Shown in pieces: positions 2,294 through 52,680 of a stretch of DNA of 64,000 bases. Within the stretch, counting starts at the first letter, position 1; every line of letters begins with the position of its first letter. Position numbers and translations under genes: made by a program. The notes beneath the pieces are model-generated. The model did not search any database and was not told the DNA's origin. It saw only the letters and a program-made list of their open reading frames with translations. The stretch comes from an uncultured virus (IMG/VR IMGVR_UViG_3300033463_000084) (taxonomy: Duplodnaviria; Heunggongvirae; Uroviricota; Caudoviricetes): IMG/VR virus record IMGVR_UViG_3300033463_000084. The stretch is one strand, 5' to 3'.

Positions 2294-2376
2294 AAAGGGA
2301 GCGGGAGGCTGCGATTTCTCGCTCTACCCCCCGCATATCGTATTGCAAATATGGAAATAATATTTGAAACCGCAAA
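2292..2376 (-). ncRNA. Candidate small RNA with its own promoter, convergent on the 3' end of the polyvalent nuclease gene
   Basis: Minus strand: TTTG (2376-2373), 19 nt, CATATTTG (2353-2346, one mismatch to TAnnTTTG), then hairpin GCGGGGGG-TAGA-GCGA-GAAA-TCGC-AG-CCTCCCGC and a T run. Confidence 0.4.
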
Positions 2377-3223
2377 ACAAAATCGCAAAAAAATGATACT
2401 CGACAAATTCAACACGAAATTCAACCCCACACCAGCGCAGAAGCGCGTTTATAGGGCAGAAATGAACAAGTATATTCACAACGCGCACCCAATCCAGCCA
2501 ATCAACGGTTTGGGCGGTTGTGAGCCGCGCCACAACGACGAACCAGCCGCACCGCAGCCAGCTAAACGCCGTCTGCTTAAAAGCGACCAAATGAATAGTA
2601 TGGACTTTATGCGGGAAAAGTTTGAAATCATACCGCTTACTGGCCGGTGGAAGAAGCTAATCGGCTATCCTCAATCGGACAGCAAGATTATGTTTTATGG
2701 CAAGCCCGGAAACGGGAAAAGCACGCTGGCGCTCCAGTTTGCCGGTTACACCTCGCGGACGCTGGGCAGCAAAACGCTCTACGTTACCAGTGAGGAACCG
2801 TTCTCGTACACGTTGCAAGAGAAATTAAAGAGGCTGGGCGTAGCTAACCCTAATTTGACAATTACCGGCGAATTTCCAGCCGATGTCAGCAAATACAAGT
2901 ATATCTTCATTGATTCGGTTAATAATTGCGGAATGAAGCCCGAAGATGTAAGGAATTTGCCGCCCGACCACTTTTACGTGTATGTTTTTCAAACCACAAA
3001 GTCGGGTGCGTTTCGCGGCTCACAAGAATACTTACACGATGTGGACGCAGAGATAAAGGTTGAAGCAATGAGAGCCGTAGCTGGTAAGAATCGTTTTGGC
3101 GGTTATGAGGAAATTGAGGTGTTGCCGCAGCGCAACGAATCGCCAGCCGCAAAGCCGAAACCAAAATCAAAGCTCGACAAAGGCCGTGCGCTACTGGCTC
3201 AAACGCTGGCTGGCTTGAAATAA
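2351..3223 (+). CDS. RadA/Sms-like (RecA-fold) P-loop ATPase; start may be 2393
   Basis: Walker A GKPGNGKST, YVTSEE, Walker B YIFIDS, GSQEYLHDVD and KNRFG motifs; lacks the RadA Zn finger and Lon-like domain. Confidence 0.8.
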   Translation: MEIIFETAKQNRKKMILDKFNTKFNPTPAQKRVYRAEMNKYIHNAHPIQPINGLGGCEPRHNDEPAAPQPAKRRLLKSDQMNSMDFMREKFEIIPLTGRWKKLIGYPQSDSKIMFYGKPGNGKSTLALQFAGYTSRTLGSKTLYVTSEEPFSYTLQEKLKRLGVANPNLTITGEFPADVSKYKYIFIDSVNNCGMKPEDVRNLPPDHFYVYVFQTTKSGAFRGSQEYLHDVDAEIKVEAMRAVAGKNRFGGYEEIEVLPQRNESPAAKPKPKSKLDKGRALLAQTLAGLK

Positions 3224-34031: not shown

Positions 34032-34460
34032 TTATTTTTTTCTTCGGTTTAGCACAATAGGCTCATCATCATCTTCGAGCCTAATGGGTTTGACCGGCGT
34101 AATCTTTATAAATTCGAGAACGTATCTCGGACAAGGTTCTTCGCGCTTCCAACCATCGAGGCCGCAAGTCTTGATGGTGATGTTGCGCCGGAATAACTTG
34201 TTGATTCCGTTGCCCATTGCCGCAATAGTGCGCTGCGTGGCTTCCAAGCAGGCGTTGGGCGATATGAGCTGCACTTTGGTAGCGTCGTCCACAATGTCGA
34301 TGTCCGACGGACGAATACCGCAAAGCACGTAGCTGTCGTTGCCGCAAGTGATGTTTGTCAGCGTGTCGCTCACAAAAATCTCAACCGGCGTTAGAACGGT
34401 GTCGTAGCCGTTTCGCTGAAACCGCTCTTGTTCCATCTTAATTATTTGAGCGTCAGTCAT
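34032..34460 (-). CDS. Small beta-rich virion protein candidate
   Basis: 142 aa, in the cluster downstream of the capsid candidate. Confidence 0.6.
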   Translation of the reverse strand: MTDAQIIKMEQERFQRNGYDTVLTPVEIFVSDTLTNITCGNDSYVLCGIRPSDIDIVDDATKVQLISPNACLEATQRTIAAMGNGINKLFRRNITIKTCGLDGWKREEPCPRYVLEFIKITPVKPIRLEDDDEPIVLNRRKK

Positions 34461-35130
34461 AATTCAAGTAGATTTTAGCGGTGTAATTGTTAGTTGGCTC
34501 GGTTGTGGTATTACCCTCACCGAAATACCCCTCTTTGGAAATGTCTCCCAGCGCGTTCCATTCCTCTTTTGTAAGTAATGGACTTAATTGTTGTTCTTCA
34601 ATAATGATTCGCAAGAACGAGCCGCCCTGCACTTTTTCGGGTTTGGGCAGAGTGATTGTGTTGGGCACAATGCCCTGCTTATTAAGATGTTGGCTGACGC
34701 AAAGCGGAGTGCTGTCGGCAATAATCTGCGTATTGTTTAGGCTCAAACTGACAACGCCAATCTGCGACGATATGGGTTGTTCTACAAGTTGGTCGTTTGT
34801 TATTGGCTCTTGAAATTTAGCCAACAGTGCCAAACCGTCAATTACAGCCGATTCGCTGCTGTCAGCAAAAACTTCCAACTTATCGTTTGTAATAAAAATC
34901 GAATCGTCGGCGTTGCGACTGACAATGTAGGTCGTTTGTCTCTTAATCACGCCGCCCTCCATCGCAAATTGACTGGAATAGCAGCGTTTGAGCCGCGTAT
35001 TAGCCCCTAATACTGCGTTGGTCAAAAAACCGTTGATACGGCGAATTTTTGACGGCAAAAGCAGTTCAAGGCTGTGAACACTGCCCCATACTCCACGGTT
35101 AGGCACATCTATTTGAGCTACGTACAACAT
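34453..35130 (-). CDS. Beta-rich virion protein candidate
   Basis: Alternating hydrophobic strands (RRINGFL, IGVVSLSLNN, YTAKIYLNY). Confidence 0.6.
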   Translation of the reverse strand: MLYVAQIDVPNRGVWGSVHSLELLLPSKIRRINGFLTNAVLGANTRLKRCYSSQFAMEGGVIKRQTTYIVSRNADDSIFITNDKLEVFADSSESAVIDGLALLAKFQEPITNDQLVEQPISSQIGVVSLSLNNTQIIADSTPLCVSQHLNKQGIVPNTITLPKPEKVQGGSFLRIIIEEQQLSPLLTKEEWNALGDISKEGYFGEGNTTTEPTNNYTAKIYLNYD

Positions 35131-35134
35131 TGTC

Positions 35135-35503
35135 TTACTCGCTTTCGTTTTCCAAAATGAAATAGAAATTGAACTTTACATCTTTCTCCGAAGAGTTGTA
35201 AAGAACCAGCTCGGCGTTTGAGCTTCGCGCAGGTATTTTGTCGGCTTTGAAATCGTAGATACAGTCCTTTCGGGCGCAATTACCGTTGTAGGAAATCAGC
35301 ACCGCGTCAGTACCCGACGGCAAAACCTCTTTTTGCGCGATTCGGCACGACAAATTCAAGCCCGATATATCGTCGGACAAGTTGTGCGGCACAATCATAA
35401 CGCCGGTAACGTGTTCGTAATCGGCCAACATTTGTTCGCGGAGCGTTTTATTGCCGTGTGCGGCTACGGTTATATCCTCGATAATTTGAAATGTCTTTTT
35501 CAT
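35135..35503 (-). CDS. Small jelly-roll-like virion protein candidate
   Basis: 122 aa, strand-rich (HVTGVMIV, LSCRIAQKEVLP, VKFNFYFILE). Confidence 0.55.
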   Translation of the reverse strand: MKKTFQIIEDITVAAHGNKTLREQMLADYEHVTGVMIVPHNLSDDISGLNLSCRIAQKEVLPSGTDAVLISYNGNCARKDCIYDFKADKIPARSSNAELVLYNSSEKDVKFNFYFILENESE

Positions 35504-35504
35504 T

Positions 35505-36611
35505 TTATGCTAATTTTTTGTAAATGAAAATCATAGCCAGTTTCCAGTTGGCAATGCTGACACCGTTGCCAGCTTTCAGCAAATCCTCATTGCCGCATAT
35601 CTCGAATGTGGCCTTGATATTTTTGGTGGTCTTTTGCTGAAATTCGTAAACAGCGTCGGCGTAGGGTATGCGGTTGGTTATCGACACAATGCCCAAATCG
35701 AAGCCTTTTGGCAGCTCTTGGTTGTCGCCAGTTTCCATCAGCGCGGCAAGGTTGATGTCGCATATCTGCATAGGCTCAATCTCGCCTCTCGATTTTGCCC
35801 CCTCGGTCAATATTGGCGATGTGTAGTTGAAAACCACCATCTTTTCGGGTTCGTGGTCAAGATTGATGTTCTGCTCTTTTTCCAGTACGTTAATGTTGAA
35901 CGTTGGAGCAAGATTGTTAATTATTCTTCGTGCGTATGCTTTGATGAGGTATTGTATGGTCGCGTCGTTGGTGTATGCTGTATTCCAATTCTCATAACTA
36001 TCGGCAATAACATCACCTAAACCCAAGTGAGCGACATCTTCTTTAGTCAAACTGACCGATTCTTCAACCAGTCGGCCATCTACGTATGTTGCCCCCTTGT
36101 ATAAGGTTACAGCTACTGCGTCGTTAGGTGCGTCGCTGGCTAATATTGATTTGATTTCGGTAAATTTTTGCCTTATCATATTGTTAACAACCTCAATAGC
36201 CTCGTTTTCGGTGAGTGTGGATTTTAGTGTAAACTCCTTAAACTCAACAAAATCGAAGCCGCCCGATTCGTCAACTGGCTCATCGTTGCAAACAAAGACA
36301 ATGTTATACTCGTTGTTGACCGTGCCGCTGATTTTAATCTCGCTGTTGTCAACGTTCAAATTCACCTCAAGGGCGCACTTTTGCCAATCAAATCTTCCTG
36401 CGCCGTAGGGCGTGGTGGTACAAAACGGACAAATGGGCAGCTCTTGTGCTATCTGCTTGCCGTCTATTGCGATTGAAACGGTGTCCAGCTTACCGCCGTA
36501 GTGGAAAATCTTATCGTTCTTGTTCTCAAAAAACAAGTAGCGGATAGACCTTACATTGTGCGGTGTAACGGTTATCACCTCGTCAGCCGATGATGGAATG
36601 GAGTAAAACAT
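35505..36611 (-). CDS. Virion protein candidate with two beta-rich domains
   Basis: VSIAIDGKQIAQELP and QELPKGFD segments resemble 35135..35503. Confidence 0.55.
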   Translation of the reverse strand: MFYSIPSSADEVITVTPHNVRSIRYLFFENKNDKIFHYGGKLDTVSIAIDGKQIAQELPICPFCTTTPYGAGRFDWQKCALEVNLNVDNSEIKISGTVNNEYNIVFVCNDEPVDESGGFDFVEFKEFTLKSTLTENEAIEVVNNMIRQKFTEIKSILASDAPNDAVAVTLYKGATYVDGRLVEESVSLTKEDVAHLGLGDVIADSYENWNTAYTNDATIQYLIKAYARRIINNLAPTFNINVLEKEQNINLDHEPEKMVVFNYTSPILTEGAKSRGEIEPMQICDINLAALMETGDNQELPKGFDLGIVSITNRIPYADAVYEFQQKTTKNIKATFEICGNEDLLKAGNGVSIANWKLAMIFIYKKLA

Positions 36612-37401: not shown

Positions 37402-37956
37402 TTACAAAAGAACTTGCTGTGCGACTGCGGGTTCACCGGCCATAAAGCCTAAATCGCCCATTTCGCCCATATTGCCCTCGGTAGGCAGAGGCTGCGACGC
37501 AAAGTCGTTCACGTAATCATTCTCGTCCGGCAGCTCGCCGTAAACAACATCGCCTACGCCGGGGAGTGCTGGTGCTGCGCCAACTCCCGAAATGGGAACA
37601 GCGTTATCATCATCATCACCGCCGTTAAGCGTACTCAAGTCTTTTTTGAAAGCCGACTGAACAAGGCTTACGCAACCACTGGCCATAACGCCGAGAGCAG
37701 CGTCTTTGGCTTTTTGGTTTTTTACCGCGAGTGTTGCACCAACACCCACTCCGGCAACGACTGCCGGAACAACCCATTTGGACACTTTCGGCGAAAGTCC
37801 GAGCAAATCTTCCTCCTCGCCCGATGTGCCAACGGTCTTTTTCGACACAAAGTTGTTAATCAGCTTGCCGCAGATGCAACCAAGTGCCACAAAACCAGCG
37901 CGTACCAAACTGTTGACCGCGATAGTTTTCTTCTCTTCAAAAGTTTTCTTTGACAT
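37402..37956 (-). CDS. Membrane protein with 2-3 hydrophobic helices and an acidic Gly-motif tail
   Basis: AGFVALGCICG and VVPAVVAGVGVGATLAV; tail ISGVG, LPGVG, MGEMGDLGFMAG. Confidence 0.75.
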   Translation of the reverse strand: MSKKTFEEKKTIAVNSLVRAGFVALGCICGKLINNFVSKKTVGTSGEEEDLLGLSPKVSKWVVPAVVAGVGVGATLAVKNQKAKDAALGVMASGCVSLVQSAFKKDLSTLNGGDDDDNAVPISGVGAAPALPGVGDVVYGELPDENDYVNDFASQPLPTEGNMGEMGDLGFMAGEPAVAQQVLL

Positions 37957-37976
37957 TTTGATTTGTTTTTAAGTTA

Positions 37977-39371
37977 TTAAAACAGTTCGATTTTCTTGAC
38001 GGCTGATTTCTTGCGTTTTTTGCGCCCAATGCCGCTCAACTTTGCAGCCGGTGCCTCGGCAGCCGGTTTCTTTTTGAGCAGCTTGTAGCCCACAACGCCA
38101 AGAACAACAGCACCAAGACCTATTCCGCCCCAAAGCAGAATTTTTTTCTTTTTGGTGTCAGCCGCTGCCGCGTTGACAACCGTTTCTTGGATTGTGTCCA
38201 TAGTAGATTGATTTTGAATATTAAGATTTGAATTAGCTCCAGTGTTTGCAGGGGCTGCACCAGCGTTTTGGGCTGCGGTGGCAGCTTGCTCAACTTGCTG
38301 TGCGGCGGTGGCAATCTCCGAGGCGGCTGAAGCCGCGTCTTTAGCCTTGCCGGTTACTTTTTGCGCTGCGTTTTTAATGCCAGTGCCTATTGTTTTTGCC
38401 GCGTTCTTAACGCCGTTAGCAATGTTTTTCAGCAAACCGTTCAGTGTTTCCTCATCGTCAAGACCATCAATGCCGTCGAAGCCGTTAATGCCTTGCAGGG
38501 TAATGCGGAAACCGTTGTTGGTGCGCTGAATGTTGATTACCTTGTTTGCCTCGTACACACCTTTCGATGTTACCTTAATCGGGTTGCCAGCCGAGCCTTT
38601 TGTGGCGGCAGCGTTTTTAGTGGCTTTTTTAATAGCCTCTTTCAATCTTCCAAACAAACCGTCCATTACCTCCGGCTCATCAATTCCGTCGAAGCCATCG
38701 AAGCCGTCAGTACCCTCAAGGGTGATTGACAAACCTTTCGGTGTGCGCTCAACGCTCACAATCTTATTGGCCTCATAGACTTTTGCGGCCTCGGCTTTTG
38801 TGAGTTTTTTTGTCGGCTCAACCTTTGCAACCTTAACAGCCGATTTTGCTTTGTCAGCGATTGCTTTTGGATAGCCGGACATTTTTAGCTCTTGTGGTTT
38901 TGCTTGGGCCATAGCTTTTTTAAGCGTGGTTGAAACCTTTGTGGCTTTTGCTGTATTCTTAACAGCGTTGGTGGCATTGGCAACCGCGTCTTTCACAGCA
39001 GCGGCTGATTGCGGTGCGGCAACCACGGTTTTAACTGGTGATACTGTCGATTTAATCTCGACAACCTTTGCCGGTGCTGCCTTTTTGGTGCTGGACTTAC
39101 CAGTTACCTTCTTCACGGCTTTGGCTACGGCTTTTGCGGCTTTCACCTTTTTGCCGTCCAAACCCTCAATGCCGTCAAGCGCTTGAACAAACTTACCGTT
39201 GATAAAGCCCTCGTCGCCCTCGAAGTTCACAGCATACCAGCCGTTGTCGTATGATTGGAGTTCCAATTCCGTGTTCGGCTCAAAAACGCCAATCATTTCG
39301 CCGTCCTTGCTGGGGAGCTTGCGAAAAGGTGCGCCTTTGCCGGCTTCCGTTATGACAATTCCTTTTCCCAT
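37977..39371 (-). CDS. SH3b-domain protein with Gly-motif clusters and C-terminal TM
   Basis: N-terminal FRKLPS..GEMIG...NGWYAVNFEGDEGFINGKFV (SH3b); TM ILLWGGIGLGAVVLGVVGY. Confidence 0.8.
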   Translation of the reverse strand: MGKGIVITEAGKGAPFRKLPSKDGEMIGVFEPNTELELQSYDNGWYAVNFEGDEGFINGKFVQALDGIEGLDGKKVKAAKAVAKAVKKVTGKSSTKKAAPAKVVEIKSTVSPVKTVVAAPQSAAAVKDAVANATNAVKNTAKATKVSTTLKKAMAQAKPQELKMSGYPKAIADKAKSAVKVAKVEPTKKLTKAEAAKVYEANKIVSVERTPKGLSITLEGTDGFDGFDGIDEPEVMDGLFGRLKEAIKKATKNAAATKGSAGNPIKVTSKGVYEANKVINIQRTNNGFRITLQGINGFDGIDGLDDEETLNGLLKNIANGVKNAAKTIGTGIKNAAQKVTGKAKDAASAASEIATAAQQVEQAATAAQNAGAAPANTGANSNLNIQNQSTMDTIQETVVNAAAADTKKKKILLWGGIGLGAVVLGVVGYKLLKKKPAAEAPAAKLSGIGRKKRKKSAVKKIELF

Positions 39372-39385
39372 TTTTTTAAAATGTT

Positions 39386-42300
39386 TTAATTGTTACTTTG
39401 ATTGTTATTTCTGCCTCTAAATGCAAAGGCAAACAGCCCCAAACCTACCACGGCGGCTCCGCCTATTATTAAAGTCTTTTTGTTGATTCCGCTTTGCTGC
39501 GATTCCTGCTGCTTTGGTTTAGCGGTCTGCATTTGTTGTTCGCCCTGCGACCAGTTCTGCTGTCCGTTGCCCGGCATTGGATATTCGGGGCTGTAAGACG
39601 GCTGCTGTTGCTGCGACTGCGAAGATGATGGAGCTGGTGTCGGTTGTTCACCGTCGCCGCCCTCGTCGCTGTCATTGTCGGCTGGCGAAAAATCTTCTTT
39701 CAGCTCTTGTCCAAACTCGACAACTCCCTTTACATTCTCGTAGAAATTTTTGAGTTTCAAGCAGATTCCCAAGATGGTTGACGAAGCGGCTGTTACCGAA
39801 GCTGCAACGGTTGCGGCCTCGCCAAGCCCGGCTATCGAATCGTAGCCATTGTTGCACAATCCCGAAATAACCGCAACCGGCTGACCGTCGGGAGTGTAAA
39901 CCTCGTCCAATGCCGATATTTTCACATAACCGCTATACTTATTGTCGGTTGTGGTGGCGGCAATCCAAGTGCCGTCGGTCATTGTCTTATCTTCGGTCTC
40001 AATATAGAGTGCTGTACCCTTTGGCAGTTCCGCAACTTTTTTTGAGCTTTCACCGCCTTGTTCATACATCACGGTAGCCTCTTTGGTTGTGCGCTGGTTG
40101 GTAAGCTGCGTTTCTTCCTTATCCTCTTTGTATGGCACATCTTCGGGGAGCGTATCGTCAGCTTTGACGGTTGCGCCCTTGCTTTCGGCAATGGCTTTGA
40201 GTTCGTTATTACCCTCATCAATGTCGGCTTGAAGTTCCTCTACAATTTCCTCGTCGGCTTCAGCTTCTTGTGCGGCTGCTTTTATCTCGTCCTCGGTTGG
40301 TTCGAGTGTGCCGCTCCACTTTTTCGACGCACCTTTTTCAAGAGCTGCCAGCAGCTTGCTTTCCTTTCCACCAAGTTTTGTAAATATCTTGTGGATATGG
40401 TCGTAGGCTTTCTTTTGAGCCTCGTATTCTTCGGGTGTTATGCCGTATGTGCTGATGGCTTCTTCCTCGGTCATTGAGCCTAAATAGCTGCGGCTGGCCA
40501 TCTTAAACATATTCAAGCGGAACGCAACCAGCAAACCGGCTTTTATAAGCAGGGTGATAGGGTTGTAAAGCAGCACGGCGCGGACAATCTTCTTTGTCAT
40601 TTGCAGCGCCACTTTGGTAACTTTCTTTGTTATCTTGATAGCCGCCACGGTCGGCTTAACAATAGTCTCTTTTACAAGCGTTTTTGTCGGTTCAACCACG
40701 GCTTTTTTAATCACATCTTTCCCCGATTCAGCGGTTGCTTTAGCCACGGTCTTTGTCGGTTCAACCACGGCGTTTTTAACCAAATTTTTGGTTTCCTGCA
40801 CTGTGGTTTTAACAGCCGTTTTGGTTGGCTCAACAACCGTTTTCTTAACCAAATCCTTTGTTGTGTCAACAGCTTGCTTTACAACGGTTTTTGTCGGAGC
40901 TACAACAGTGTTTTTAACAAGGTCTTTAGTTTCCTTAACAGCGGTTTTAACAGCCGTTTTGGTTGGCTCAACCACGGTGTTTTTAACCACGTTTTTGGTG
41001 GTGGAGACAGCCGTTTTAGCATTGTCTTTTACAACTGCGGCGGTTGTTTTAGCCACATCTTTAACTGCGGTTACAACGGCCTTTGCAGGCTGCGTAACTG
41101 CGGCTTTGGCTTGTTCGCCAGCCTTTTTCAGTGTCTCCTTTGCAGCTTCTTTGTTACCAGTTGCTGCTTGCACACCAGCTTTCACGACATTAGCTGTGGC
41201 CTTTGTCGCGTTGACAGCCGATTTAGCGGCTGCGGCGGTTGTTTTAGCAGCCGTTTTTACGGCAGTAGTGGTTGTTTTAGCCACGGTCTTTGCTGCCGTT
41301 TTGGTGGTATCGGCCACGGCTTTAGCCACTGATTTAGTAGCGTTTGCTGCGGTCTTTGCTGCGGCGGTAGTTACATTCTTTGTGGTGTTCGCCACTTGTT
41401 TGACAGCCGTACCAGTCGCTTTTACGGCGGCTTTGGTGGTGTTGGCTGCGGCGTTAGCAACGCTCTTTGTCGCGTTTGCCGTTGTTTTTACGGCGGCGGT
41501 GGCAACGTTCTTTGTGGTGTTCGCCACTTGTTTGACAGCCGTACCAGTCGCTTTTACTGCGGCTTTGGTGGTGTTGGCGGCGGCGTTGGCCACGCTCTTT
41601 GTGGCGGTGGCGGTTGTTTTTGCAACATTGGTTGCAGTGTTGGCAACCGCTTTTGCAGTGTTGGTGGCGGCGGTCTTGACGGCGCTTGTGGCCTTTTTAA
41701 CCAATTTTTTAAGTTTGCCGTTCAATTCACCCAATCCCTCAAAACCGTTAAGCGTCTCGTATTTAGAGACTAAAGCGTCCATCGCCTTATCATTGCCTAT
41801 AACTGGTATGAGTTGCGAAAGCATTTTACGCACAGCGTTTGCCTCGGCTTCGGTGTCATAGAAAGCCAGCGGTTGAGCTGCTATTGCTCCGCTCAATCGT
41901 GCAAAATAGCGTCGGCAGTTGTCGATATTATCCTGCACTGTCAAGCCCTCGTCGGCATTGTAGGCGAAATCAACGCCATACATCAAGAATTGCAAATCAT
42001 CGTCGATTCCCGAAAGTCCGTTAAGACCTTGCAGCGAAGCGATTGAGATTGTTACGACCGGCACGCGGATTGTCTTTGTGCGGACATAACCGTTTTTAAT
42101 TTTTGTTTGGCGCAAGTTCTTTGTTGTCGGCTTGCGGTTCGCGCCAACATTCTGCCTAATTGTGGCTTTCAGCTTGCGAGTGAATGTATTGTCGTTCACC
42201 AATTCAGCGTCTTTCGAGGCTACATTGGCGAATGTTGTTGTCTTTTTCAGTCGGTTGAACAAACCGCGCTTGTTGGGCAGCGTCTCAACAGCACCATTCT

Positions 42301-42853
42301 TCAAAACGCGCTGTGTGTCCGGGTCGTAGTTTTCGCCCGGCTCCAAAAAATGAGCGTCGCTCTCGTTGTTTGCGAGGCGAATCTTGCCCTCGTCGATAAG
42401 ACGGCTTTCCTCACGCGCCATATTATCAATGGCTTGTTCACGGTTTGCGCTATCCCAATTATCAATAACGTAGCCGAGCATATCGCTTAATTGCTGCGGA
42501 TTTTGATAAATGGCCACGGCCTGCGGCGCACTGTCAACCACTTGTTTTGTGCGGAGCAGATGATTATAAATCATTTCCGAATCCTCAATCGAGCCGTTGC
42601 CTTGATAACCAACGAAATCCAGTCCTTTGGTAAGATAGCCGATGTTACGCACCGTCTTGTTGTCGAGGCCGCGAGTGTAATACTGCACGGCGGCTTGACG
42701 GCGGCGAATTTTATCCGGCGTTTCCATCGTCCAACGCTGAAATTTGCCACGGCGAGTTTTGCCAGCAGTATTGAGCTGCTGATTGTAGGCTGTCTCGGCT
42801 GGTGCGCCATTCAAAAACTGTATAGGTATTCCGTTCATAATGTTATCCTTCAA
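39386..42853 (-). CDS. Large membrane-anchored protein with 11-mer amphipathic repeats and an SH3b domain
   Basis: About 360 aa A/T/K/V repeat region; SH3b-like TVMYEQGGESSKKVAELPKG...GTWI...YSGYVK; C-terminal TM LIIGGAAVVGLGLFAFAF. Confidence 0.8.
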   Translation of the reverse strand: MKDNIMNGIPIQFLNGAPAETAYNQQLNTAGKTRRGKFQRWTMETPDKIRRRQAAVQYYTRGLDNKTVRNIGYLTKGLDFVGYQGNGSIEDSEMIYNHLLRTKQVVDSAPQAVAIYQNPQQLSDMLGYVIDNWDSANREQAIDNMAREESRLIDEGKIRLANNESDAHFLEPGENYDPDTQRVLKNGAVETLPNKRGLFNRLKKTTTFANVASKDAELVNDNTFTRKLKATIRQNVGANRKPTTKNLRQTKIKNGYVRTKTIRVPVVTISIASLQGLNGLSGIDDDLQFLMYGVDFAYNADEGLTVQDNIDNCRRYFARLSGAIAAQPLAFYDTEAEANAVRKMLSQLIPVIGNDKAMDALVSKYETLNGFEGLGELNGKLKKLVKKATSAVKTAATNTAKAVANTATNVAKTTATATKSVANAAANTTKAAVKATGTAVKQVANTTKNVATAAVKTTANATKSVANAAANTTKAAVKATGTAVKQVANTTKNVTTAAAKTAANATKSVAKAVADTTKTAAKTVAKTTTTAVKTAAKTTAAAAKSAVNATKATANVVKAGVQAATGNKEAAKETLKKAGEQAKAAVTQPAKAVVTAVKDVAKTTAAVVKDNAKTAVSTTKNVVKNTVVEPTKTAVKTAVKETKDLVKNTVVAPTKTVVKQAVDTTKDLVKKTVVEPTKTAVKTTVQETKNLVKNAVVEPTKTVAKATAESGKDVIKKAVVEPTKTLVKETIVKPTVAAIKITKKVTKVALQMTKKIVRAVLLYNPITLLIKAGLLVAFRLNMFKMASRSYLGSMTEEEAISTYGITPEEYEAQKKAYDHIHKIFTKLGGKESKLLAALEKGASKKWSGTLEPTEDEIKAAAQEAEADEEIVEELQADIDEGNNELKAIAESKGATVKADDTLPEDVPYKEDKEETQLTNQRTTKEATVMYEQGGESSKKVAELPKGTALYIETEDKTMTDGTWIAATTTDNKYSGYVKISALDEVYTPDGQPVAVISGLCNNGYDSIAGLGEAATVAASVTAASSTILGICLKLKNFYENVKGVVEFGQELKEDFSPADNDSDEGGDGEQPTPAPSSSQSQQQQPSYSPEYPMPGNGQQNWSQGEQQMQTAKPKQQESQQSGINKKTLIIGGAAVVGLGLFAFAFRGRNNNQSNN

Positions 42854-43874
42854 ATGTTCTTGTTGGTTTTTTCTCGGCGAAGCACTGGTCTAATACCGGG
42901 TCAACCGTGTAATAGCCGTTCTCGTAAGGCACAATCACGTAAACGTGCTGCCAGCCGCGCTGATAAGCTGCCACGCGAAACTTGTATTTGATGTTCAAGT
43001 TTTCAAGAATAGAGCCGATGAGAGTTGCAAAACAGTCGCAGTCGCCCTTTTGGTCGTACAGTGCGCGAAGCGGACGGCGTACTTGTTCAACCATCGGGTT
43101 GTCTTTCACGTACTGAACGTGCGAATAGACAAAATCGAAGATGTTTTGCAGCGTTTCTTTCAGCGTCGGGCGTTTGAGCCATTGAGCCAATTTTGTGGTG
43201 TCCGATTTATATTTGACGGCCACTTTACGCATAAGCGCAACAGTGTCGTGTTCGTCGCCATTTTCAAATAGGATAGGGTCGGTTTGCTCCAGTGCCTCAC
43301 GCGGTGGAATATAGGCGGCATAATCGCTTATCGGGCGAATATTGCGGACGGTCGAGGCAGTAAGCCCCAAACCGTTAACACCCATAAGGCTCAAATTGTA
43401 GCTTTGTGTTTGATTGAGCGGCTGGGCAAACTGCAAGCGGTAGTTGTCAACGCCTATTGTAGCCTTGACTTGCAGGTATTTCAACAGCTCATCATAGTTG
43501 CCTTTTGTTATCCAGTCAGTGATGTTCTGCCCGGCGACAGCAACCAATCGGGAAAATGGAACGGCGCATACCATTGAGATAACGCCGTTTTTGCCCATCT
43601 TCCGACTAACACTATTATAAACCACACTTGAGAGGTCGTAGCCATTGTAGGTAAGCCCTACGCCATCAATCGAAACGGTTGATTCTTTGTATTGGTTGAT
43701 TGTGAATGACAAAGGAATGTTGAGCGCGGAATTGCTAAACGACAGCGCATTATTTATTTGTGCGCGTGCAGAAAAATTCTCGCCAGTGGACTTTAGAAGC
43801 CCCTTTTTGGTGAGAACCTTGTAAATCCCGAAGCCAACGGCAATCGCAATCAATATTTTCGTTCCTTTATTCAT
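42843..43874 (-). CDS. Transglutaminase-like (Cys-His-Asp) protease with N-terminal TM
   Basis: GDCDCFATL (Cys), WQHVYV (His), TVDPV (Asp); first gene of the morphogenesis operon. Confidence 0.8.
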   Translation of the reverse strand: MNKGTKILIAIAVGFGIYKVLTKKGLLKSTGENFSARAQINNALSFSNSALNIPLSFTINQYKESTVSIDGVGLTYNGYDLSSVVYNSVSRKMGKNGVISMVCAVPFSRLVAVAGQNITDWITKGNYDELLKYLQVKATIGVDNYRLQFAQPLNQTQSYNLSLMGVNGLGLTASTVRNIRPISDYAAYIPPREALEQTDPILFENGDEHDTVALMRKVAVKYKSDTTKLAQWLKRPTLKETLQNIFDFVYSHVQYVKDNPMVEQVRRPLRALYDQKGDCDCFATLIGSILENLNIKYKFRVAAYQRGWQHVYVIVPYENGYYTVDPVLDQCFAEKKPTRTFEG

Positions 43875-45260: not shown

Positions 45261-45440
45261 ATGGAAACATCGAAAATCAATCCAGTACAGCCGAAGCGCG
45301 GAACGCTGCAACGAATGGCAAGAGCGTTTGACCGCTCAACGGCCTCAATCAGCCAGCACTTGTCGGGCATAACCAACAACGATTTAAGCCAGCGCATACG
45401 CAAAATGGCGTTAGAGCTGGGTGGACGCGAAACAAAGTAA
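45261..45440 (+). CDS. Cro-like HTH protein (start corrected to METSKIN)
   Basis: GTLQRMARAFDRSTASISQHLSG...LSQRIRKMALELGG. Confidence 0.75.
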   Translation: METSKINPVQPKRGTLQRMARAFDRSTASISQHLSGITNNDLSQRIRKMALELGGRETK

Positions 45441-45463
45441 TCACACTATTAAACTATACAACT

Positions 45464-45589
45464 ATGGACTTATTTACACTTGGTTACATCGGAGTTTGCA
45501 CGGCAGTTTTCGCGGTCGTTATCTGCGCGGCGGTACTGTGCCAAAAATGGGAGAACTACATCAAAGAGAACATCATCAACAAAAAATGA
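45464..45589 (+). CDS. 41-aa single-TM peptide absent from the ORF track
   Basis: Own translation MDLFTLGYIGVCTAVFAVVICAAVLCQKWENYIKENIINKK. Confidence 0.55.
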   Translation: MDLFTLGYIGVCTAVFAVVICAAVLCQKWENYIKENIINKK

Positions 45590-45740
45590 CACAAAAGCGG
45601 TGCGGCGACACAAGCCTATGGCACTCAAGGCAATTACTCATAATTATTAAGGATAACTTTTTTCATTGTCAGTTTAAGTTTTTCACACAACAGCCGCACC
45701 GCTTTTTAAAATCGAATAATACACTTTAACACTTAACACT

Positions 45741-46133
45741 ATGACCACACAAGCAGAAAACATTATTGCAGGATTGAGCGACGAGCAAAAACTATTGCTT
45801 GCCGACACAATCGTTTATGGCGGCTGGGGCGACACCGGCGGCGAGGATTTTAACGGCGAGGAAGATTATGGCTTCGTCTATCTGCCTAACGAGGCTTGGC
45901 GCGGAGAACACTTTGAACGCAAGGAGCTGTCCGCAAAGTTTAAAGAACTATACAAGGCTTTAGGAATGACCGACGAGGGTGAATGGTTCAAAACCAATGG
46001 CGTTATCAACTGGCATAAAGACTGGTGGGACGATGGCAGCGGTTCGGTAATCATTATACAAAGCGGTTTGTATGAAGAACTGAACACTTGGGCTGAATCA
46101 TACGTGAAGCAATACAATTCCAATAACCAATAA
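45741..46133 (+). CDS. Hypothetical acidic early protein
   Basis: In-operon ORF with A-rich leader. Confidence 0.7.
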   Translation: MTTQAENIIAGLSDEQKLLLADTIVYGGWGDTGGEDFNGEEDYGFVYLPNEAWRGEHFERKELSAKFKELYKALGMTDEGEWFKTNGVINWHKDWWDDGSGSVIIIQSGLYEELNTWAESYVKQYNSNNQ

Positions 46134-46145
46134 TCACTTTAAGAT

Positions 46146-46562
46146 ATGAAAGAGGCAAACAAAGTAGTAACGGTCGCTGACGTTGCAAAAACAATTAAAG
46201 GCGTTCAATCAGCCGAAAAACTTTCGGCTATGGTCTTTAAAAAGGCCGAAAATGAAATGAAAGAACTGTTAGTTGGCAAGTGCTTCATCTGCCAGTATGT
46301 TGATGGTGAGCTACTGGTTATCGACGCTGAAAGAAACAGCAAGCGCAGCTTTATCGGACGCAGATTCTCAATCGCCGATTATGAGATAATCGAGTTTTAC
46401 GAAACCACTTGGTTAGCTCCTGCAAAAATCAAATCGCTAACCATCATCAGCCGCGATGAGTTTGAACGCTTATACAAGGCCGCTCAAAACATTCGTAAAG
46501 ACTATTTGACCCAAAAGAACGAGCTGGCAAAAATTATCAATGACACTATTAACAACCAATAA
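46146..46562 (+). CDS. Hypothetical early protein
   Basis: In-operon ORF. Confidence 0.7.
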   Translation: MKEANKVVTVADVAKTIKGVQSAEKLSAMVFKKAENEMKELLVGKCFICQYVDGELLVIDAERNSKRSFIGRRFSIADYEIIEFYETTWLAPAKIKSLTIISRDEFERLYKAAQNIRKDYLTQKNELAKIINDTINNQ

Positions 46563-46574
46563 AAATTTTGAATT

Positions 46575-47096
46575 ATGACAAGTTGGGAATTTTTTGAGAA
46601 ATGGACAAAAGAGGTTGAGTTTTATAAAAACGACCAACCACTTAACGCAGACGGCCTTGCCATCGCCACGTTTACGATGGACAACAACCTTTTAAAATTT
46701 GTGGTTATGGCTGACGAGCAAATTGTTGATGTAGTTTTATGGATTTATGATTATGAAGAAGAAGATAGTTCGGATAAGGAGCTTGTAGATTTTGTCGATA
46801 TTATCAAAATCATCAAAAACATTATCAATTTAATCGAGCTATACGAACACCACGACCACAAGGCCGTAGATTTATACACTCCGCTTGATAGCGACAGCTT
46901 CATCTATTCGTCATTGAAGCAGGTTAATGAGGCCGTTGCGCGGCTCTCAATGCGACACGATTCTAACTACGTATCGTTTGAGCTGACACATCAATCGCTT
47001 TCTCTTTTTAAAAAGGAGCTGAAAATAAACTTAACCCACTTGCAGAAAGTATTGGTTGGGCTTGGTGCTAATGAATTGATTGACTGTAAATCATAA
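46575..47096 (+). CDS. Hypothetical acidic early protein
   Basis: In-operon ORF. Confidence 0.7.
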   Translation: MTSWEFFEKWTKEVEFYKNDQPLNADGLAIATFTMDNNLLKFVVMADEQIVDVVLWIYDYEEEDSSDKELVDFVDIIKIIKNIINLIELYEHHDHKAVDLYTPLDSDSFIYSSLKQVNEAVARLSMRHDSNYVSFELTHQSLSLFKKELKINLTHLQKVLVGLGANELIDCKS

Positions 47097-47100
47097 GGAT

Positions 47101-47280
47101 ATGGCAAAACACATAATTGCAGTGAGTGAAGCTCAAAAGGAAATTTTTGAAAAGTTGTGTTTTGAGCTGAATAACGCACCGATACAGCCCGGAGGAAAAA
47201 AGGTTATCACTTTTGATTGCACCCCATACACCGACACCCAATTAAAAGGGCTTATGAAACAAGTTTTTACAATTCAATGA
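47101..47280 (+). CDS. Hypothetical protein (start MAKHII)
   Basis: In-operon ORF. Confidence 0.55.
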   Translation: MAKHIIAVSEAQKEIFEKLCFELNNAPIQPGGKKVITFDCTPYTDTQLKGLMKQVFTIQ

Positions 47281-47290
47281 AGTTACCAAA

Positions 47291-47590
47291 ATGAGCGAAT
47301 CTATTAACAATCCGAAGCCGGTTGATACCAACAACACGGAGCCAACACCGGCACAATGCGTCGAGGCGTACCACTGGTATATGCAGCACGAATGGGACTT
47401 GCACGAATGTCGCTATCTATTTGGACGCGACGCGGAACACCTTTACCGGCTCTATGAGCAATACGAAACACAATGCACAACTACAAAATGGGGCGTTGAT
47501 GATTTGTTTTTTTCAATTCTCAAAGACGATGAGAAAGAGTGTTTGGTGAAGCAGGCAACCGCTTGCTGGTTACAACGGCAAAATGCGTAG
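47291..47590 (+). CDS. Hypothetical protein
   Basis: In-operon ORF. Confidence 0.65.
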   Translation: MSESINNPKPVDTNNTEPTPAQCVEAYHWYMQHEWDLHECRYLFGRDAEHLYRLYEQYETQCTTTKWGVDDLFFSILKDDEKECLVKQATACWLQRQNA

Positions 47591-47948
47591 AACTATGAGG
47601 AAAAACCTTTCATATAACGATGTTCCAGCTGTGTTGAGCGATATGCAAGCCGATTTGAAAGAGGTAAAATCTTTGCTCAAAGAGGTGCTTTCGGGTGCGG
47701 CGGCGGCTAAAGAGGATAGGCTTGTGTTCGGGTTGTTCAAACGCAATGAGATAGTTGCGATGTGCGACAAGCGGCTATGGAACGAACCAAGCTCACCTTT
47801 TAAAGACTACAAAGATGTTTACCGCGCAAAGGAAAACGGCTGCAAATTCAAACGGCCAGCCGGTGAACACCGATACTACATAAAGGCTTCCGTATTGGAA
47901 GATTGGTTTTGTGAATGGAACGGTCATACTGAAATACCAAAACTATAA
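47583..47948 (+). CDS. Excisionase-like DNA-binding protein
   Basis: N-terminal LSYNDVPAVLSDMQADLKEVKSLL resembles Bacteroidota Xis proteins; C-terminal RYYIKASVLEDW. Confidence 0.45.
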   Translation: MRRTMRKNLSYNDVPAVLSDMQADLKEVKSLLKEVLSGAAAAKEDRLVFGLFKRNEIVAMCDKRLWNEPSSPFKDYKDVYRAKENGCKFKRPAGEHRYYIKASVLEDWFCEWNGHTEIPKL

Positions 47949-47960
47949 AACTTAACAACT

Positions 47961-48209
47961 ATGGACGAAAAGGGACACGAACTGATATTGGGCGTTTTCA
48001 TTCCCAACTGCCCAATTTTATCAACTGACCCTCGGTTACTCACCGAAAATGGCGGTTGGTTTAAGAATCATCGTGCAGTGCTTACAGCGGCACAAAACAA
48101 AAATTATGGCTTTTTCAAAACTAAAGGAGTGAAGCAGCTGATGATTATGCCCGAAGATTTGGAACGCGCCCTTGTCGGCAAGAAAGCAAAGTTTGAACCA
48201 TTAAGATAA
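47961..48209 (+). CDS. Hypothetical protein, possibly related to 47583..47948
   Basis: LILGVF...GWFKNHRAV vs LVFGLF...SPFKDYKDV. Confidence 0.55.
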   Translation: MDEKGHELILGVFIPNCPILSTDPRLLTENGGWFKNHRAVLTAAQNKNYGFFKTKGVKQLMIMPEDLERALVGKKAKFEPLR

Positions 48210-48216
48210 TGAGATT

Positions 48217-48705
48217 ATGAGAAACAAGATGAATGAATCGGACTGCCTTTGCCCACGCTGCGGCGAGAGCTGGCACGGAATGACGCTGCAAAGTATCTTT
48301 TTTAAAACCAACAAAAAGGCTTTTCCAAACAAGACAACCGCCGAAATCAACGAGCTTGTAAAACAACAACTCAAAGAAAACGGCAAGAACGGCCAAGAAC
48401 ACGTTACGGCCTTGATTGGTGTTGGCGGTGTGTGGTGCTGTCCTAAATGCGGCCTATCGGTAGCTGAAAAAGATGTTTTCCGACTGGTTGACAATAAGGA
48501 GCGTCGCTTGCTGTCGTACTTGATTGGTGTGCAGATTAGGCTCAAAGCGTATTTTAGGCTGAAACACCACATTAACGAGTGGCTGGTGCGCCGTTATATG
48601 CTGCTTAACCAAAATCCAAGCAAACACCTTTGCAATATGCGTAAATGGGTGCTTTTCACTTTCATTTACTTGTTAGATAAGAATGTACGCAACCCTAAAG
48701 CCTAA
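48217..48705 (+). CDS. Zn-ribbon protein
   Basis: CPRCG and CPKCG pairs. Confidence 0.65.
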   Translation: MRNKMNESDCLCPRCGESWHGMTLQSIFFKTNKKAFPNKTTAEINELVKQQLKENGKNGQEHVTALIGVGGVWCCPKCGLSVAEKDVFRLVDNKERRLLSYLIGVQIRLKAYFRLKHHINEWLVRRYMLLNQNPSKHLCNMRKWVLFTFIYLLDKNVRNPKA

Positions 48706-48710
48706 TACCT

Positions 48711-48932
48711 ATGACTATTGCAGATTACATAAACAAGCCAGCCGCCATCTACAAGAATGAGCTTGCAAGAATTGTCGGCTATTCGCGCTGGCGCAATATC
48801 CAGCAGATTATCTCACGCAATAAAGAACTGGCTGATAAGCTGACACAACACGGCTATCAAAAAGCCTCAAAGTTTCTTACTCCGGCGCAGGGACTGATTA
48901 TTGCCACCTTTTTATACAACGGCCAAATCTAA
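48711..48932 (+). CDS. DUF4248-like small DNA-binding protein
   Basis: YKNELA...ISRNKELADKLTQHGYQKASKFLTPAQ. Confidence 0.6.
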   Translation: MTIADYINKPAAIYKNELARIVGYSRWRNIQQIISRNKELADKLTQHGYQKASKFLTPAQGLIIATFLYNGQI

Positions 48933-48938
48933 ACACCT

Positions 48939-49271
48939 ATGTACTTTGACAACTGCACAACGATTGATGAACTGAAAGCCGTCCGTAATGAGCTTTTGCG
49001 GCAATACCACCCCGACGCTAACGGAAACGTTGACAACGACGAGATACGCGAGATTAACGCCGAATACACAAAGCGTTCAGCTGAATTTGCACTGCAAGAA
49101 GAAGCAGAGCAAAACACCGATGCCGTCGCAATGTTTTTGAAAGGCGCAGTGGTTGCTGGTGTTGAAGCCCTTTACAAAAAACAGCCGAAAGTGGTTAAGA
49201 CCATCAATGATGTGTTGAGCAAAAGCGTTGGCGAGAATATCGCCGATTTAATCAACAATTTTAAAAAATAG
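48939..49271 (+). CDS. J-domain-like protein
   Basis: YFDNCTTIDELKAVRNELLRQYHPD...IREINAEY (HPD motif). Confidence 0.7.
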   Translation: MYFDNCTTIDELKAVRNELLRQYHPDANGNVDNDEIREINAEYTKRSAEFALQEEAEQNTDAVAMFLKGAVVAGVEALYKKQPKVVKTINDVLSKSVGENIADLINNFKK

Positions 49272-49273
49272 CT

Positions 49274-49513
49274 ATGAACCAAAATCAAAACAATAATGAG
49301 AAAGAAAACAAGTCGGCAGTTTCTAAACGTGCCGGGCTACGAGAGCGTTGTGGCGCACGTAGGCAACGCAGAGGTGAGCGTAACTGGCTCCAGCCAATAC
49401 GCAGTTTGCTTCGTTTCCTCCAAATCCAAATGTGGGCAAATATCATCATCGGCGCACTGACGCTGACAATGTGGATAATCTTCTTTATGCTGATTTTTAA
49501 ACAAGTATTATAA
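49274..49513 (+). CDS. Small membrane protein
   Basis: C-terminal hydrophobic helix. Confidence 0.55.
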   Translation: MNQNQNNNEKENKSAVSKRAGLRERCGARRQRRGERNWLQPIRSLLRFLQIQMWANIIIGALTLTMWIIFFMLIFKQVL

Positions 49514-49532
49514 ACCTAACAACTATAAAACT

Positions 49533-49787
49533 ATGGTAACACGCAAACTCACAAGAGAGCAAAGCGATAAAGGCAAAGCTATACGCGAATACCTTATCAA
49601 AGGCAACACACTGACACAATTAGAGGCTTCGCGCAGATTCGATGTCCTGCACCTTGCCGGTGTAATAAGCAAAATGCGGAAGAAAGGCTATCAATTTAAA
49701 GTGGATAAGATTGTAAAGCCCGACGGCTACACTTACGCACGATACCAGTTAATCAAATTACCAAACGATAAAAACAATAAACAATGA
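49533..49787 (+). CDS. Winged HTH protein
   Basis: IREYLIKGNTLTQLEASRRFDVLHLAGVISKMRKKGY...YARY. Confidence 0.75.
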   Translation: MVTRKLTREQSDKGKAIREYLIKGNTLTQLEASRRFDVLHLAGVISKMRKKGYQFKVDKIVKPDGYTYARYQLIKLPNDKNNKQ

Positions 49788-50002
49788 GAACAATAGAATC
49801 AAAAAGCTCGGCAATACGCCAGTGGCTGATGAGAGGCTTGCCGCTCACACAAAGAGAGTGTACGCGCAGATTTAAGTTTTTGCGACTGGCCGCTCTTATT
49901 CACGATATGAAGCGACACGGCGCTAATATCAAAGTTGATATGGTGAGAGAGCAACAAGGTAGCAGACCGTGTGCAAGATACTGGCTGATTCAAACAACCT
50001 AA
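49784..50002 (+). CDS. Winged HTH protein, tandem paralog of 49533..49787
   Basis: IRQWLMRGLPLTQRECTRRFKFLRLAALIHDMKRHG...CARY. Confidence 0.75.
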   Translation: MRTIESKSSAIRQWLMRGLPLTQRECTRRFKFLRLAALIHDMKRHGANIKVDMVREQQGSRPCARYWLIQTT

Positions 50003-50964: not shown

Positions 50965-50983
50965 CACTTAAACGCATAATGCT

Positions 50984-51238: not shown

Positions 51239-51242
51239 AGCT

Positions 51243-51560: not shown

Positions 51561-51586
51561 TTTCAAACATTTTAAACTATAAGAAA

Positions 51587-51877: not shown

Positions 51878-51878
51878 T

Positions 51879-52660: not shown

Positions 52661-52680
52661 CACTAAAAAAAACACTTGAA

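Follow-up and report, generated by a model that had tools for sequence, protein, structure and literature searches.

Adenain, the adenovirus protease, acts at short hydrophobic-x-Gly sites, (M/I/L)XGG-X and (M/I/L)XGX-G, in several particle proteins (scaffold, core and membrane-active) of a virus with a jelly-roll capsid, and proteases of this type are usually viewed as an innovation of the eukaryotic branch. Among phages, T4 gp21, with its L/I-x-E sites and capsid-targeting sequences, and phiKZ gp175 pair one protease with a short recurring site and remove N-terminal tags and scaffold, the same logic as that proposed below for a different enzyme; these prohead proteases are serine enzymes of the assemblin/HK97 fold and belong to another virion type. 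Within the transglutaminase fold, LapG is a genuine endoprotease with a Cys-His-Asp triad, a soluble periplasmic cell enzyme that is regulated by LapD and calcium and cuts at small residues (an Ala-Ala site in LapA), and PeiP is a virus-encoded pseudomurein endoisopeptidase that cuts the cell wall and not viral proteins. To our knowledge, proteolytic maturation is not known for the tailless jelly-roll viruses of bacteria and archaea (PRD1, PM2, P23-77/SH1), and published full text on transglutaminase-like phage maturation proteases and on tailless or single-jelly-roll Bacteroidales viruses yielded no description of a system like the one considered here. That system lies in a 64,000-nucleotide stretch of an uncultured virus (IMG/VR record IMGVR_UViG_3300033463_000084; the whole stretch is referred to as the window), where a membrane-anchored transglutaminase-like protein, here called the enzyme, heads a block of late genes whose products carry recurring hydrophobic-x-Gly motifs.

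An initial annotation of the window had noted [LIMF]-x-G motifs, often stacked, at domain boundaries of late proteins, and had proposed that the enzyme matures virion proteins at these motifs, as adenain does. Our analysis suggests that the enzyme is probably the maturation protease of a tailless phage lineage resembling the Salisaeta phage SSIP-1, and that it would cut at the motifs. We prefer this reading because it best unites a predicted catalytic triad, a protease-like fold, stacked sites and acidic-to-basic junctions in the putative substrates, the absence of the motif where a junction has become a gene boundary, its fixed position ahead of the ATPase core, and a docking prediction. The features concerned are located in Table 1.

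Judged from family matches and from an AlphaFold2 model (predicted local distance difference test (pLDDT) 83.8), the enzyme is a membrane-anchored protein of transglutaminase fold with a predicted Cys-His-Asp triad. A transmembrane (TM) helix (residues 3-23) is followed by a beta-sandwich (34-159), a floppy linker (165-171) and the catalytic domain (approximately 206-343), and residues 225-326 match both PF01841 (Transglut_core; 26.5 bits, cut-off 23) and PF04473 (28.5 bits, cut-off 20.5). Across 27 sequences with 33-79% identity to the window protein, G277-D-C279-D-C281, H310 and D325 do not vary; we take Cys279, and not Cys281, to be the nucleophile, following the pattern G-x-C-x-x-[FY]-A. 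When the catalytic domain was compared with solved structures using VIA-align, the best match was 3kd4, a putative protease of Parabacteroides (Z 11.8, root mean square deviation (rmsd) 2.6, 130 residues aligned), and the closest characterised fold was LapG (4fgo, 4fgp, 4fgq and 4u65; Z 10.1-10.9, rmsd 2.9-3.2, 124-126 residues aligned). Lower scores were obtained with 3isr (Z 9.8), TglA (Z 9.6), and TG3, factor XIII and PNGase (Z about 8.4-8.8). The transglutaminase-like, Cys-His-Asp character originally assigned to the enzyme is thus upheld, with a true protease, LapG, among its nearest solved folds. The N-terminal beta-sandwich resembles the luminal domain of TMEM106B and LEA-type domains (Z 8.9-10.1).

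Unlike LapG, the enzyme is viral and membrane-anchored, and it does not match the LapG/BTLCP sequence family: Pfam at E up to 0.01 gave PF04473 and PF01841 only, and a profile search of Protein Data Bank (PDB) sequences with the enzyme family gave no meaningful match and no LapG at E up to 1. Nor is it an adenain. There was no Pfam match to Peptidase_C5, and no adenain appeared among the best 50 entries of either fold search, which is weak evidence. The enzyme is non-homologous to adenain, of another fold, anchored in a membrane and found in a bacterial host, so that the likeness drawn by the initial annotation survives as one of site pattern. Many copies of the motif, with V/L/I-x-G-L-G, and strings such as VNGLG, IAGLG, FEGLG and LSGIG fit (M/I/L)XGX-G, and the commonest spacing, dominant among stacks, is L-x-G-hydrophobic-x-G, not L-x-G-x-G. 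The adenovirus pVI site is given as IVGL-G in a passage of PMC4246237.

Relatives of the enzyme were collected from 137 database matches, from which 35 genome loci and 2 viral loci were taken with their flanks; scans of viral contigs gave only two related contigs with either of two queries. In a survey of 401 Bacteroidales genomes, entered via one related locus (L004), the gene for the 197-residue capsid candidate described below was found in 33 genomes and the enzyme in 43. All but one of the 33 capsid-gene genomes also contained the enzyme, the exception being a 228-base fragment at a contig end, and in 30 of these 32 genomes the enzyme lay 2.3-6 kb upstream of the capsid gene on the same contig and strand. 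This co-occurrence makes the enzyme a core gene of the virus group. One survey genome has two copies of a related element on a complete contig. Among 50,697 phage records, the only matches were proteins of SSIP-1, which is the element's only cultured relative. SSIP-1 gp34, a structural protein of the mature virion, is 28% identical to the catalytic domain (tblastn E 3e-6; local blastp E 4e-11), and gp40 is 25% identical to the window ATPase (E 2e-9). A published account (PMC6356626) presents SSIP-1 as a tailless phage with an inner membrane and a genome with hardly any database relatives.

All of the motif strings listed by the initial annotation are present where it had placed them. We counted [LIMF]xG motifs and stacks in 71 open reading frames (ORFs) of the window, each compared with 1000 composition-preserving shuffles. 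Motif counts were above chance in only four ORFs, namely those of the 464-residue protein (19 observed, 6.7 expected; stacks 4 against 0.09), the 1155-residue protein (counts in Table 1; stacks 2 against 0.07), the scaffold-like protein (9 against 5.2; stacks 2 against 0.08, p 0.005) and the ATPase (10 against 4.1, p 0.002). The same shuffles gave no count enrichment for the small membrane protein (6 observed, 4.0 expected), the 199-residue membrane protein (4, 3.1), the enzyme (4, 4.5) or two polyvalent proteins (12, 12.4 for the 1053-residue protein and 12, 10.2 for the product of 17-2293). The spread of the motif across late proteins is therefore narrower than had been claimed and concerns a subset of them. 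The companion claim, that early genes hold no stacks, was nearly right: two early ORFs (54817-55455 and 60290-60667) hold one two-unit stack each.

The motif is considerably more apparent in the relatives. In 32 non-redundant related loci, with the late module defined as the ORFs downstream of the enzyme, 88 stacks were observed in the late module where 12.45 were expected, compared with 20 against 17.2 in all other ORFs; the excess, 7-fold over expectation, is confined to the late module. An unbiased tripeptide scan of the late module placed GLG first (97 against 27.3 expected) and LNG second (82 against 21.2), and LCG, LSG, GFD, LDG, VSG and GIG were also over-represented downstream of the enzyme; the top tripeptide of the remaining ORFs was GKT. 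The gene order is conserved as enzyme, homologue of the 1155-residue protein, small membrane protein, 197-residue capsid protein, four capsid-module genes and coiled-coil protein. Motif positions are conserved in five families, and it is this comparison with relatives that raises the standing of the original observation of the motifs.

Within the enzyme, a stacked motif separates the anchor and beta-sandwich from the catalytic domain. Inside the model, the pLDDT falls below 50 at residues 165-171 (GVNGLGL) only; L169 is nearly invariant and G170 invariant in the 27-sequence alignment. A hydrophobic-Gly pair occupies this column in all 38 ORFs that contain both domains (a set including two duplicate loci and the window's near-twin), and in 36 of them the pair is Leu-Gly. 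In eight of 18 further survey loci the anchor and catalytic domains are encoded by two overlapping genes. Seven of the eight second ORFs were aligned across the junction, and all seven start at that very column; six lack the junction motif, and the seventh (L050) retains N-I-G. The motif that had been seen between the two domains is accordingly conserved, at a junction that is a gene boundary in relatives. Fusion of the catalytic domain to domains that the window encodes in its next gene is seen in these eight split loci and in nine others, leaving a single locus of the 18 (L057) that is arranged as in the window, and in three survey ORFs everything is contained in a single polypeptide. The 60 residues that follow the catalytic domain in 18 fused ORFs (16 from the survey loci, together with L035 and L038) hold 64 motifs where 21.8 were expected. 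Two relatives (L015:9074-10540 and L016:8331-9773) have an enzyme linker enlarged by 130-150 Lys-rich residues, bounded by ISGLDG or a similar string at one end and by VSGLG at the other, such that a basic peptide is flanked by motifs within the enzyme.

The next gene encodes the 1155-residue protein, homologues of which follow the enzyme in 27 ORFs of the related loci. Its tag at the N-terminus is the element that follows the catalytic domain in the fused forms. After the tag come a conserved N domain, roughly 350 residues of Ala/Lys/Thr repeats, a second conserved domain (the C domain), a region resembling SH3, and TM segments. All 18 N-termini examined carry [IQ]-Q-[FYL]-L-[DN]-G, sometimes duplicated; Leu14 and Gly16 of the tag are invariant and Gln12 is present in at least 90% of them, in proteins that are only 15-33% identical. 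Further along, the lysine-rich repeats start directly after LNGFEGLGELNG. A hydrophobic-x-Gly motif occurs within 25 residues before a Lys/Arg-rich tract in 30 of 38 relatives with a conserved C domain, an approximate figure, as the heuristic used to locate where the tract starts breaks down in proteins rich in repeats. The last Gly of the motif often stands directly before Lys or Arg (G-[KR]) and is preceded by an acidic stretch; in one example protein, the upstream side has 15 Asp/Glu and 1 Lys/Arg, and the downstream side 24 Lys/Arg and no Asp/Glu. Adenovirus pVII and mu offer a parallel to basic segments flanked by such sites. The repeats of the window protein (40650-41700, minus strand; residues ~385-735) are about 350 residues of degenerate Ala/Lys/Thr/Val sequence (…TKSVANAAANTTKAAVKATGTAVKQVANTTKNV…), and in relatives the corresponding place is taken by a lysine-rich amphipathic tract that is much shorter, at 11-100 residues, and resembles cationic membrane-active peptides.

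Comparable arrangements were found in other late proteins. The 464-residue protein combines an SH3 domain with stacked motifs and with Lys/Ala-rich segments; it also has two small repeated domains, each closed by a stack, and a TM segment, after which come LSGIG and a basic tail. In 19 homologues of the small membrane protein, 'SG-TDLLGLDG', 'SL[SN]G' and 'LPG[VIM]G' are fixed in position, and motif positions are likewise conserved in 14 homologues of the coiled-coil protein, which we regard as a putative scaffold. Further motif sites include GFDGFDGIDE, LNGFEGLGELNGK and INGLGG of the ATPase. The placement of motifs at domain junctions is hence conserved in the enzyme, the two proteins downstream of it, the small membrane protein, the scaffold-like protein and the ATPase.

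In the ATPase the motif lies in an N-terminal extension. Of 76 homologues, 66 have this extension (the long form) and 10 are short. A stacked or hydrophobic-x-G-hydrophobic-G motif is located 46-80 residues (mode 55-56) before Walker A in 51 of the 66 long forms, and several of the other 15 have a single motif there. The ten short forms, some of which may be fragments, start 19-70 residues before Walker A, and eight of them lack such a motif; the exceptions are a stack at residue 8 in one protein (P0148) and, in another (P0190), a pattern match that overlaps Walker A itself.

A complex of the catalytic domain (residues 172-343, 27-row alignment) with residues 1-45 of the 1155-residue protein (18 rows) was then predicted. 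The docking score was 0.87 (0.86-0.89 in three runs), and all three controls scored 0.00; of 157 solved complexes 116 attain this mark, as do 2 of 215 mismatched pairs, counts that are only rough guides for our own alignments. The runs agreed in at least 69% of contacts, and the partner had a pLDDT of at least 48. On the partner side the predicted interface is formed by residues 7-18 (NGIPIQFLNGAP), and on the enzyme side by residues 192-207, 210-211, 214, 218, 261-267, 270 and 273-274. Leu14 of the tag is predicted to contact 264-267 and 270, with 270-274 leading into Cys279, and Gln12 to contact 199-202 and 263-265. The prediction supports binding of the motif peptide to the catalytic domain.

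Under the protease reading, the TM helix and beta-sandwich would hold the enzyme on the viral membrane, and the catalytic domain would recognise a short motif with Leu-x-Gly at its core, which frequently occurs in stacked or longer versions such as Q-x-L-x-G-hydrophobic-x-G, V-x-G-L-G and G-F-D-G-F-D-G. Precursors would be cut at these motifs during particle maturation. The sites would include the linker between the enzyme's own anchor and catalytic domain, the N-terminal tag of the next protein, which forms one polypeptide with the enzyme in many relatives, and, in two large membrane-associated proteins, the points where acidic pro-regions give way to lysine-rich amphipathic segments; further sites would lie in the scaffold-like protein, in the small membrane protein and in the ATPase's N-terminal extension. 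The freed basic peptides might be membrane-active or DNA-condensing. It is quite possible, if short of probable, that a widespread lineage of tailless jelly-roll Bacteroidales phages has independently evolved maturation in the adenovirus style, in which an unrelated membrane-anchored protease of transglutaminase fold frees itself from a polyprotein and then cuts Leu-x-Gly sites, releasing lysine-rich peptides from acidic pro-regions, trimming the ATPase and removing the scaffold. If so, this would be the first maturation protease in the prokaryotic viruses of the jelly-roll lineage, and viruses of this architecture would have acquired cleavage maturation at least twice, converging on the site pattern. 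The motif would also offer a rule, at the sequence level, by which virion proteins and their mature ends could be recognised in phage genomes that otherwise defy annotation, and the released cationic amphipathic peptides would be a possible device for membrane penetration or DNA condensation.

Several points weigh against this reading. The proposal that the enzyme matures virion proteins is favoured by its fold, triad, junction motifs and docking, and cleavage itself, the scissile bond, its timing and the role of the freed basic peptides are inferred. Related loci share ancestry, so that raw motif counts overstate the number of independent events, and most late proteins of the window, the polyvalent ones included, are without [LIMF]xG enrichment. 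SSIP-1 proteins show no motif enrichment either; that phage may have the enzyme in common with the window and perhaps not the motif system. Cys279 and His310 are absent from the predicted interface. In fused relatives the tag begins only 3-8 residues after the catalytic domain and could be a structural strand, in which case the docking, with tag and domain contiguous, may perhaps reflect intramolecular packing. PeiP (8z4f) is nearly as close in fold as the proteases (Z 9.6, rmsd 3.0, 118 residues aligned), and the structural role of gp34 in the SSIP-1 virion would equally suit an enzyme of entry.

Some of these points would be expected if the motif were a docking tag that is never cut, the Leu-x-Gly strands binding a groove of the enzyme domain, or of capsid or membrane proteins, so as to tether cargo and membrane proteins within the particle, with the enzyme domain as an assembly hub. 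The predicted contacts are strand-like, with 261-267 and 195-207, and name no catalytic residue; the short spacing in fused relatives is that of a structural element, and the tag stands at the extreme N-terminus of all 18 homologues, as a targeting signal would. We nevertheless consider this alternative unlikely. A pure adaptor would have no purpose for an invariant Cys-His-Asp triad, tandem stacks between acidic and basic segments are typical of redundant cut sites, and the junction motif is gone from most of the aligned split-gene forms, as described above.

It is quite unlikely that the enzyme is instead a cell-wall peptidase for entry or lysis, similar to PeiP, PeiW or NlpC/P60-type enzymes, and that the motifs are unrelated to it, serving as linkers or as sites of host or other proteases. 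Besides the proximity of PeiP and the virion location of gp34, this would suit the fusion, in relatives, of the catalytic domain to a large Lys-rich amphipathic and TM protein, a possible genome-delivery device, and the window has no clear endolysin family, the sole candidate being a DUF5675 protein (9082-9828). PeiP itself has another N-terminal part, and nothing ties it to a motif that recurs among virion proteins. Such a peptidase, however, would leave unexplained both the predicted docking of the motif peptide, which the controls did not reproduce, and the occurrence of hydrophobic-x-Gly, rather than generic flexible sequence, at junctions of six families, and the nearest folds are proteases.

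A true transglutaminase, cross-linking the Gln of Q-x-L-x-G to Lys residues of the lysine-rich segments in an isopeptide-stabilised particle, is very improbable. The fold is shared with TG3 and factor XIII, the partner proteins are extremely Lys-rich, and Gln is near-invariant four residues before the Gly of the tag and common at that place in the ATPase motif; in most other motif copies, however, Gln is not conserved whereas Leu and Gly are invariant, Gln12 is predicted to lie away from the Cys loop, and the closest bacterial folds are proteases. That the motifs have no specific function at all, arising instead from Gly-rich linkers of low complexity and from the common ancestry of the loci, has equally little to recommend it: several carriers are of low complexity, the loci are not independent and enrichment is missing from most late proteins, but the stacks far exceed what composition-preserving shuffles expect, the motif recurs at fixed places in unrelated families (for example, 55-56 residues before Walker A), and its Leu and Gly are invariant across proteins as divergent as the tag-bearing ones.

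Two other identities for the repeats were discarded. Collagen-like G-x-y stacks were rejected because the stacks run to no more than 2-4 triplets and position X is hydrophobic, and calcium-binding D-G repeats were set aside, Asp not being conserved across copies.

Table 1. Positions in the window of the enzyme, the motif-bearing proteins and the capsid module
Feature	Position	Strand	Remarks
Enzyme	42843..43874	-	Membrane-anchored protein of predicted transglutaminase fold and Cys-His-Asp triad, 343 aa; first gene of the late operon
Predicted catalytic-triad codons	Cys279 43038-43040, His310 42945-42947, Asp325 42900-42902	-	Invariant alignment columns
Junction motif LMGVNGLG, enzyme residues 163-170	43365..43388	-	Between anchor/beta-sandwich and catalytic domains
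1155-aa virion protein	39386..42853	-	20 [LIMF]xG motifs against 9.0 expected; in many relatives, a fusion with the enzyme
N-terminal tag NGIPIQFLNG, residues 7-16 of the 1155-aa protein	42806..42835	-	Conserved
Stacked motifs of the 1155-aa protein	41717..42031	-	LQGLNGLSG, residues 275-283 (42005-42031); LNGFEGLGELNG, residues 368-379 (41717-41752)
464-aa protein	37977..39371	-	SH3_3, 27.2 bits; 3 homologues in the loci
Small membrane protein, 184 aa	37402..37956	-	Conserved loop motifs
Single-jelly-roll capsid candidate, 197 aa	36747..37340	-	Likely start at Met33 of a 229-aa ORF
Four capsid-module genes, 368, 122, 225 and 142 aa	34032..36611	-	Syntenic in 17-21 ORFs of the loci
Scaffold-like protein, 368 aa	32901..34007	-	Coiled coil, acidic tail; LMGLGGLAG, IGGLFGIDG
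Membrane protein, 199 aa	25323..25922	-	Basic N-terminal peptide with KLNG and KGLG
Polyvalent protein, 1053 aa	5264..8425	-	ART-PolyVal domain at residues 630-782 (PF18760, 93.6 bits)
RecA/KaiC-like ATPase	2351..3223	+	Similar to SSIP-1 gp40; INGLGG at residues 51-56 (2501-2518), before the core

The 197-residue product is the most conserved late protein, and its AlphaFold2 model (pLDDT 90.1) makes it a candidate vertical jelly-roll capsid protein. In a comparison with 48,161 chains, the top folds were those of PBCV-1 (Z 8.5), the SPV1 major capsid protein (8.4), EhV-201 (8.3), HCIV-1 (7.3) and faustovirus (7.2), followed by the orf virus scaffold (7.1), P23-77 VP17 (6.9), STIV (6.8), PRD1 P3 (6.8), HHIV-2 (6.8) and African swine fever virus (ASFV) p72 (6.4); among the 16 best chains, 11 belong to capsid proteins of the PRD1-adenovirus or P23-77 type or to capsid-like scaffolds, at Z values that are only middling. 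The nearest named clusters in the ESM Atlas were corticovirus P2 domains, at a score of 0.75 that is below the trust level, and the 368-residue protein of the capsid module had a poor model there. Profile searches of PDB sequences with the 197- and 368-residue families gave no meaningful match, and tblastn of the 368-residue protein against phage records found nothing. In relatives L041-L058, the C-terminal part of the 368-residue protein and the 122- and 225-residue proteins (window 34453-36611) match the same small ORFs, and some relatives have three paralogues of the 122-residue family in a row. The sequences are compatible with a capsid module that may be built of several related small jelly-roll-like proteins.

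The element as a whole is best read as a large (>60 kb), integrase-bearing, temperate, tailless phage of rumen Bacteroidales; its nearest genome record is a metagenome-assembled genome of Salinivirgaceae (98% identity). Minus-strand genes run from 43874 to ~3267 and plus-strand genes from ~45400 to 61900. Scans with Pfam (65 distinct window ORFs) and PHROGs (25 ORFs) recognised few of the minus-strand proteins: fibre- or adhesin-like proteins (CBM_5_12 with a phage fibre repeat, a collagen repeat, BspA leucine-rich repeats (LRR) and DUF285), an ART-domain polyvalent protein, a tyrosine integrase, the RecA/KaiC-like ATPase and, at the head of the block, the transglutaminase-like enzyme. Portal, terminase, tail-tube, tape-measure and prohead-protease families were absent from the ORFs scanned, PHROGs matched neither the enzyme nor any of 16 other late proteins, and Pfam detected no protease family other than the enzyme's. 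Inspection of the late block revealed many small TM proteins, on the strength of which the particle probably contains an internal membrane. SSIP-1 differs from the element in genome size (43.8 kb against >60 kb) and in having a halophile as host, and no similarity to its capsid proteins gp44-48 was detectable with hhalign (seven late-protein families against 21 SSIP-1 proteins; best probability 5.5). SSIP-1 packages gp43, a giant protein of the polyvalent type.

The initial annotation had further proposed that polyvalent proteins are cut into separate effectors. What remains of this is a small number of sites at module edges, without overall enrichment and with one lineage-specific string, so that processing of these proteins at the motifs is only weakly supported. 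In the 1053-residue protein, FEGVSG (6041-6058) directly follows the ART domain, LEGLHG-TKKA and GLQG-TKKA flank a repeated module, and LSGLG follows a Lys/Ala helix. A stacked motif lies within 40 residues after the domain in 6 of 101 full-ART proteins; four of the six are close homologues of the window protein (83-100% identity, FEGVSG in all four) and are effectively one observation, leaving two among 97 unrelated proteins. A published account (PMC5512222, in part) ascribes the processing of polyvalent proteins to zincin-like peptidases, and transglutaminases are not mentioned in that part. A further polyvalent protein of at least 558 residues is encoded by 62325-63998 (plus strand), an ORF that runs off the window and is open at its 3' end; INGLFG is located near its N-terminus, it contains an HEWFH string that may mark a zincin-like peptidase, and the start of an LPD1 domain was seen at E 7e-4, below the Pfam cut-off. 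A near-identical Lys/Ala helix, LLKLKAKAAKAKL(E/A)LMK, occurs four times, at 5181-5240, 5267-5326 and 5621-5683 on the minus strand and at 1469-1525 on the plus strand. These copies correspond to the N-terminus of a 249-residue protein (4503-5252), two places in the 1053-residue protein, one of them its extreme C-terminus, and the interior of the product of 17-2293, and the helix resembles a module delimiter or packaging signal common to the polyvalent proteins.

Elsewhere in the window, a tyrosine integrase with an Arm-DNA-bind_5 domain (10660-11889, plus strand) is encoded amid the late-gene block but on the other strand, and a protein with a Tad2-like (Thoeris anti-defence 2) domain (51587-51877, plus strand; 88.6 bits) is encoded among the early genes. 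The DUF5675 protein (95.7 bits), on the minus strand, has an N-terminal TM segment and is the only candidate lysis enzyme seen. Large receptor-binding-like proteins, unusually many for a tailless phage, are encoded on the minus strand between 14795 and 31833; they include proteins of 1640 residues (CBM_5_12 and fibre repeat), 472 residues (collagen repeat), 1128 residues (BspA-type LRR) and 1078 residues (DUF285 and Listeria-Bacteroides repeat).

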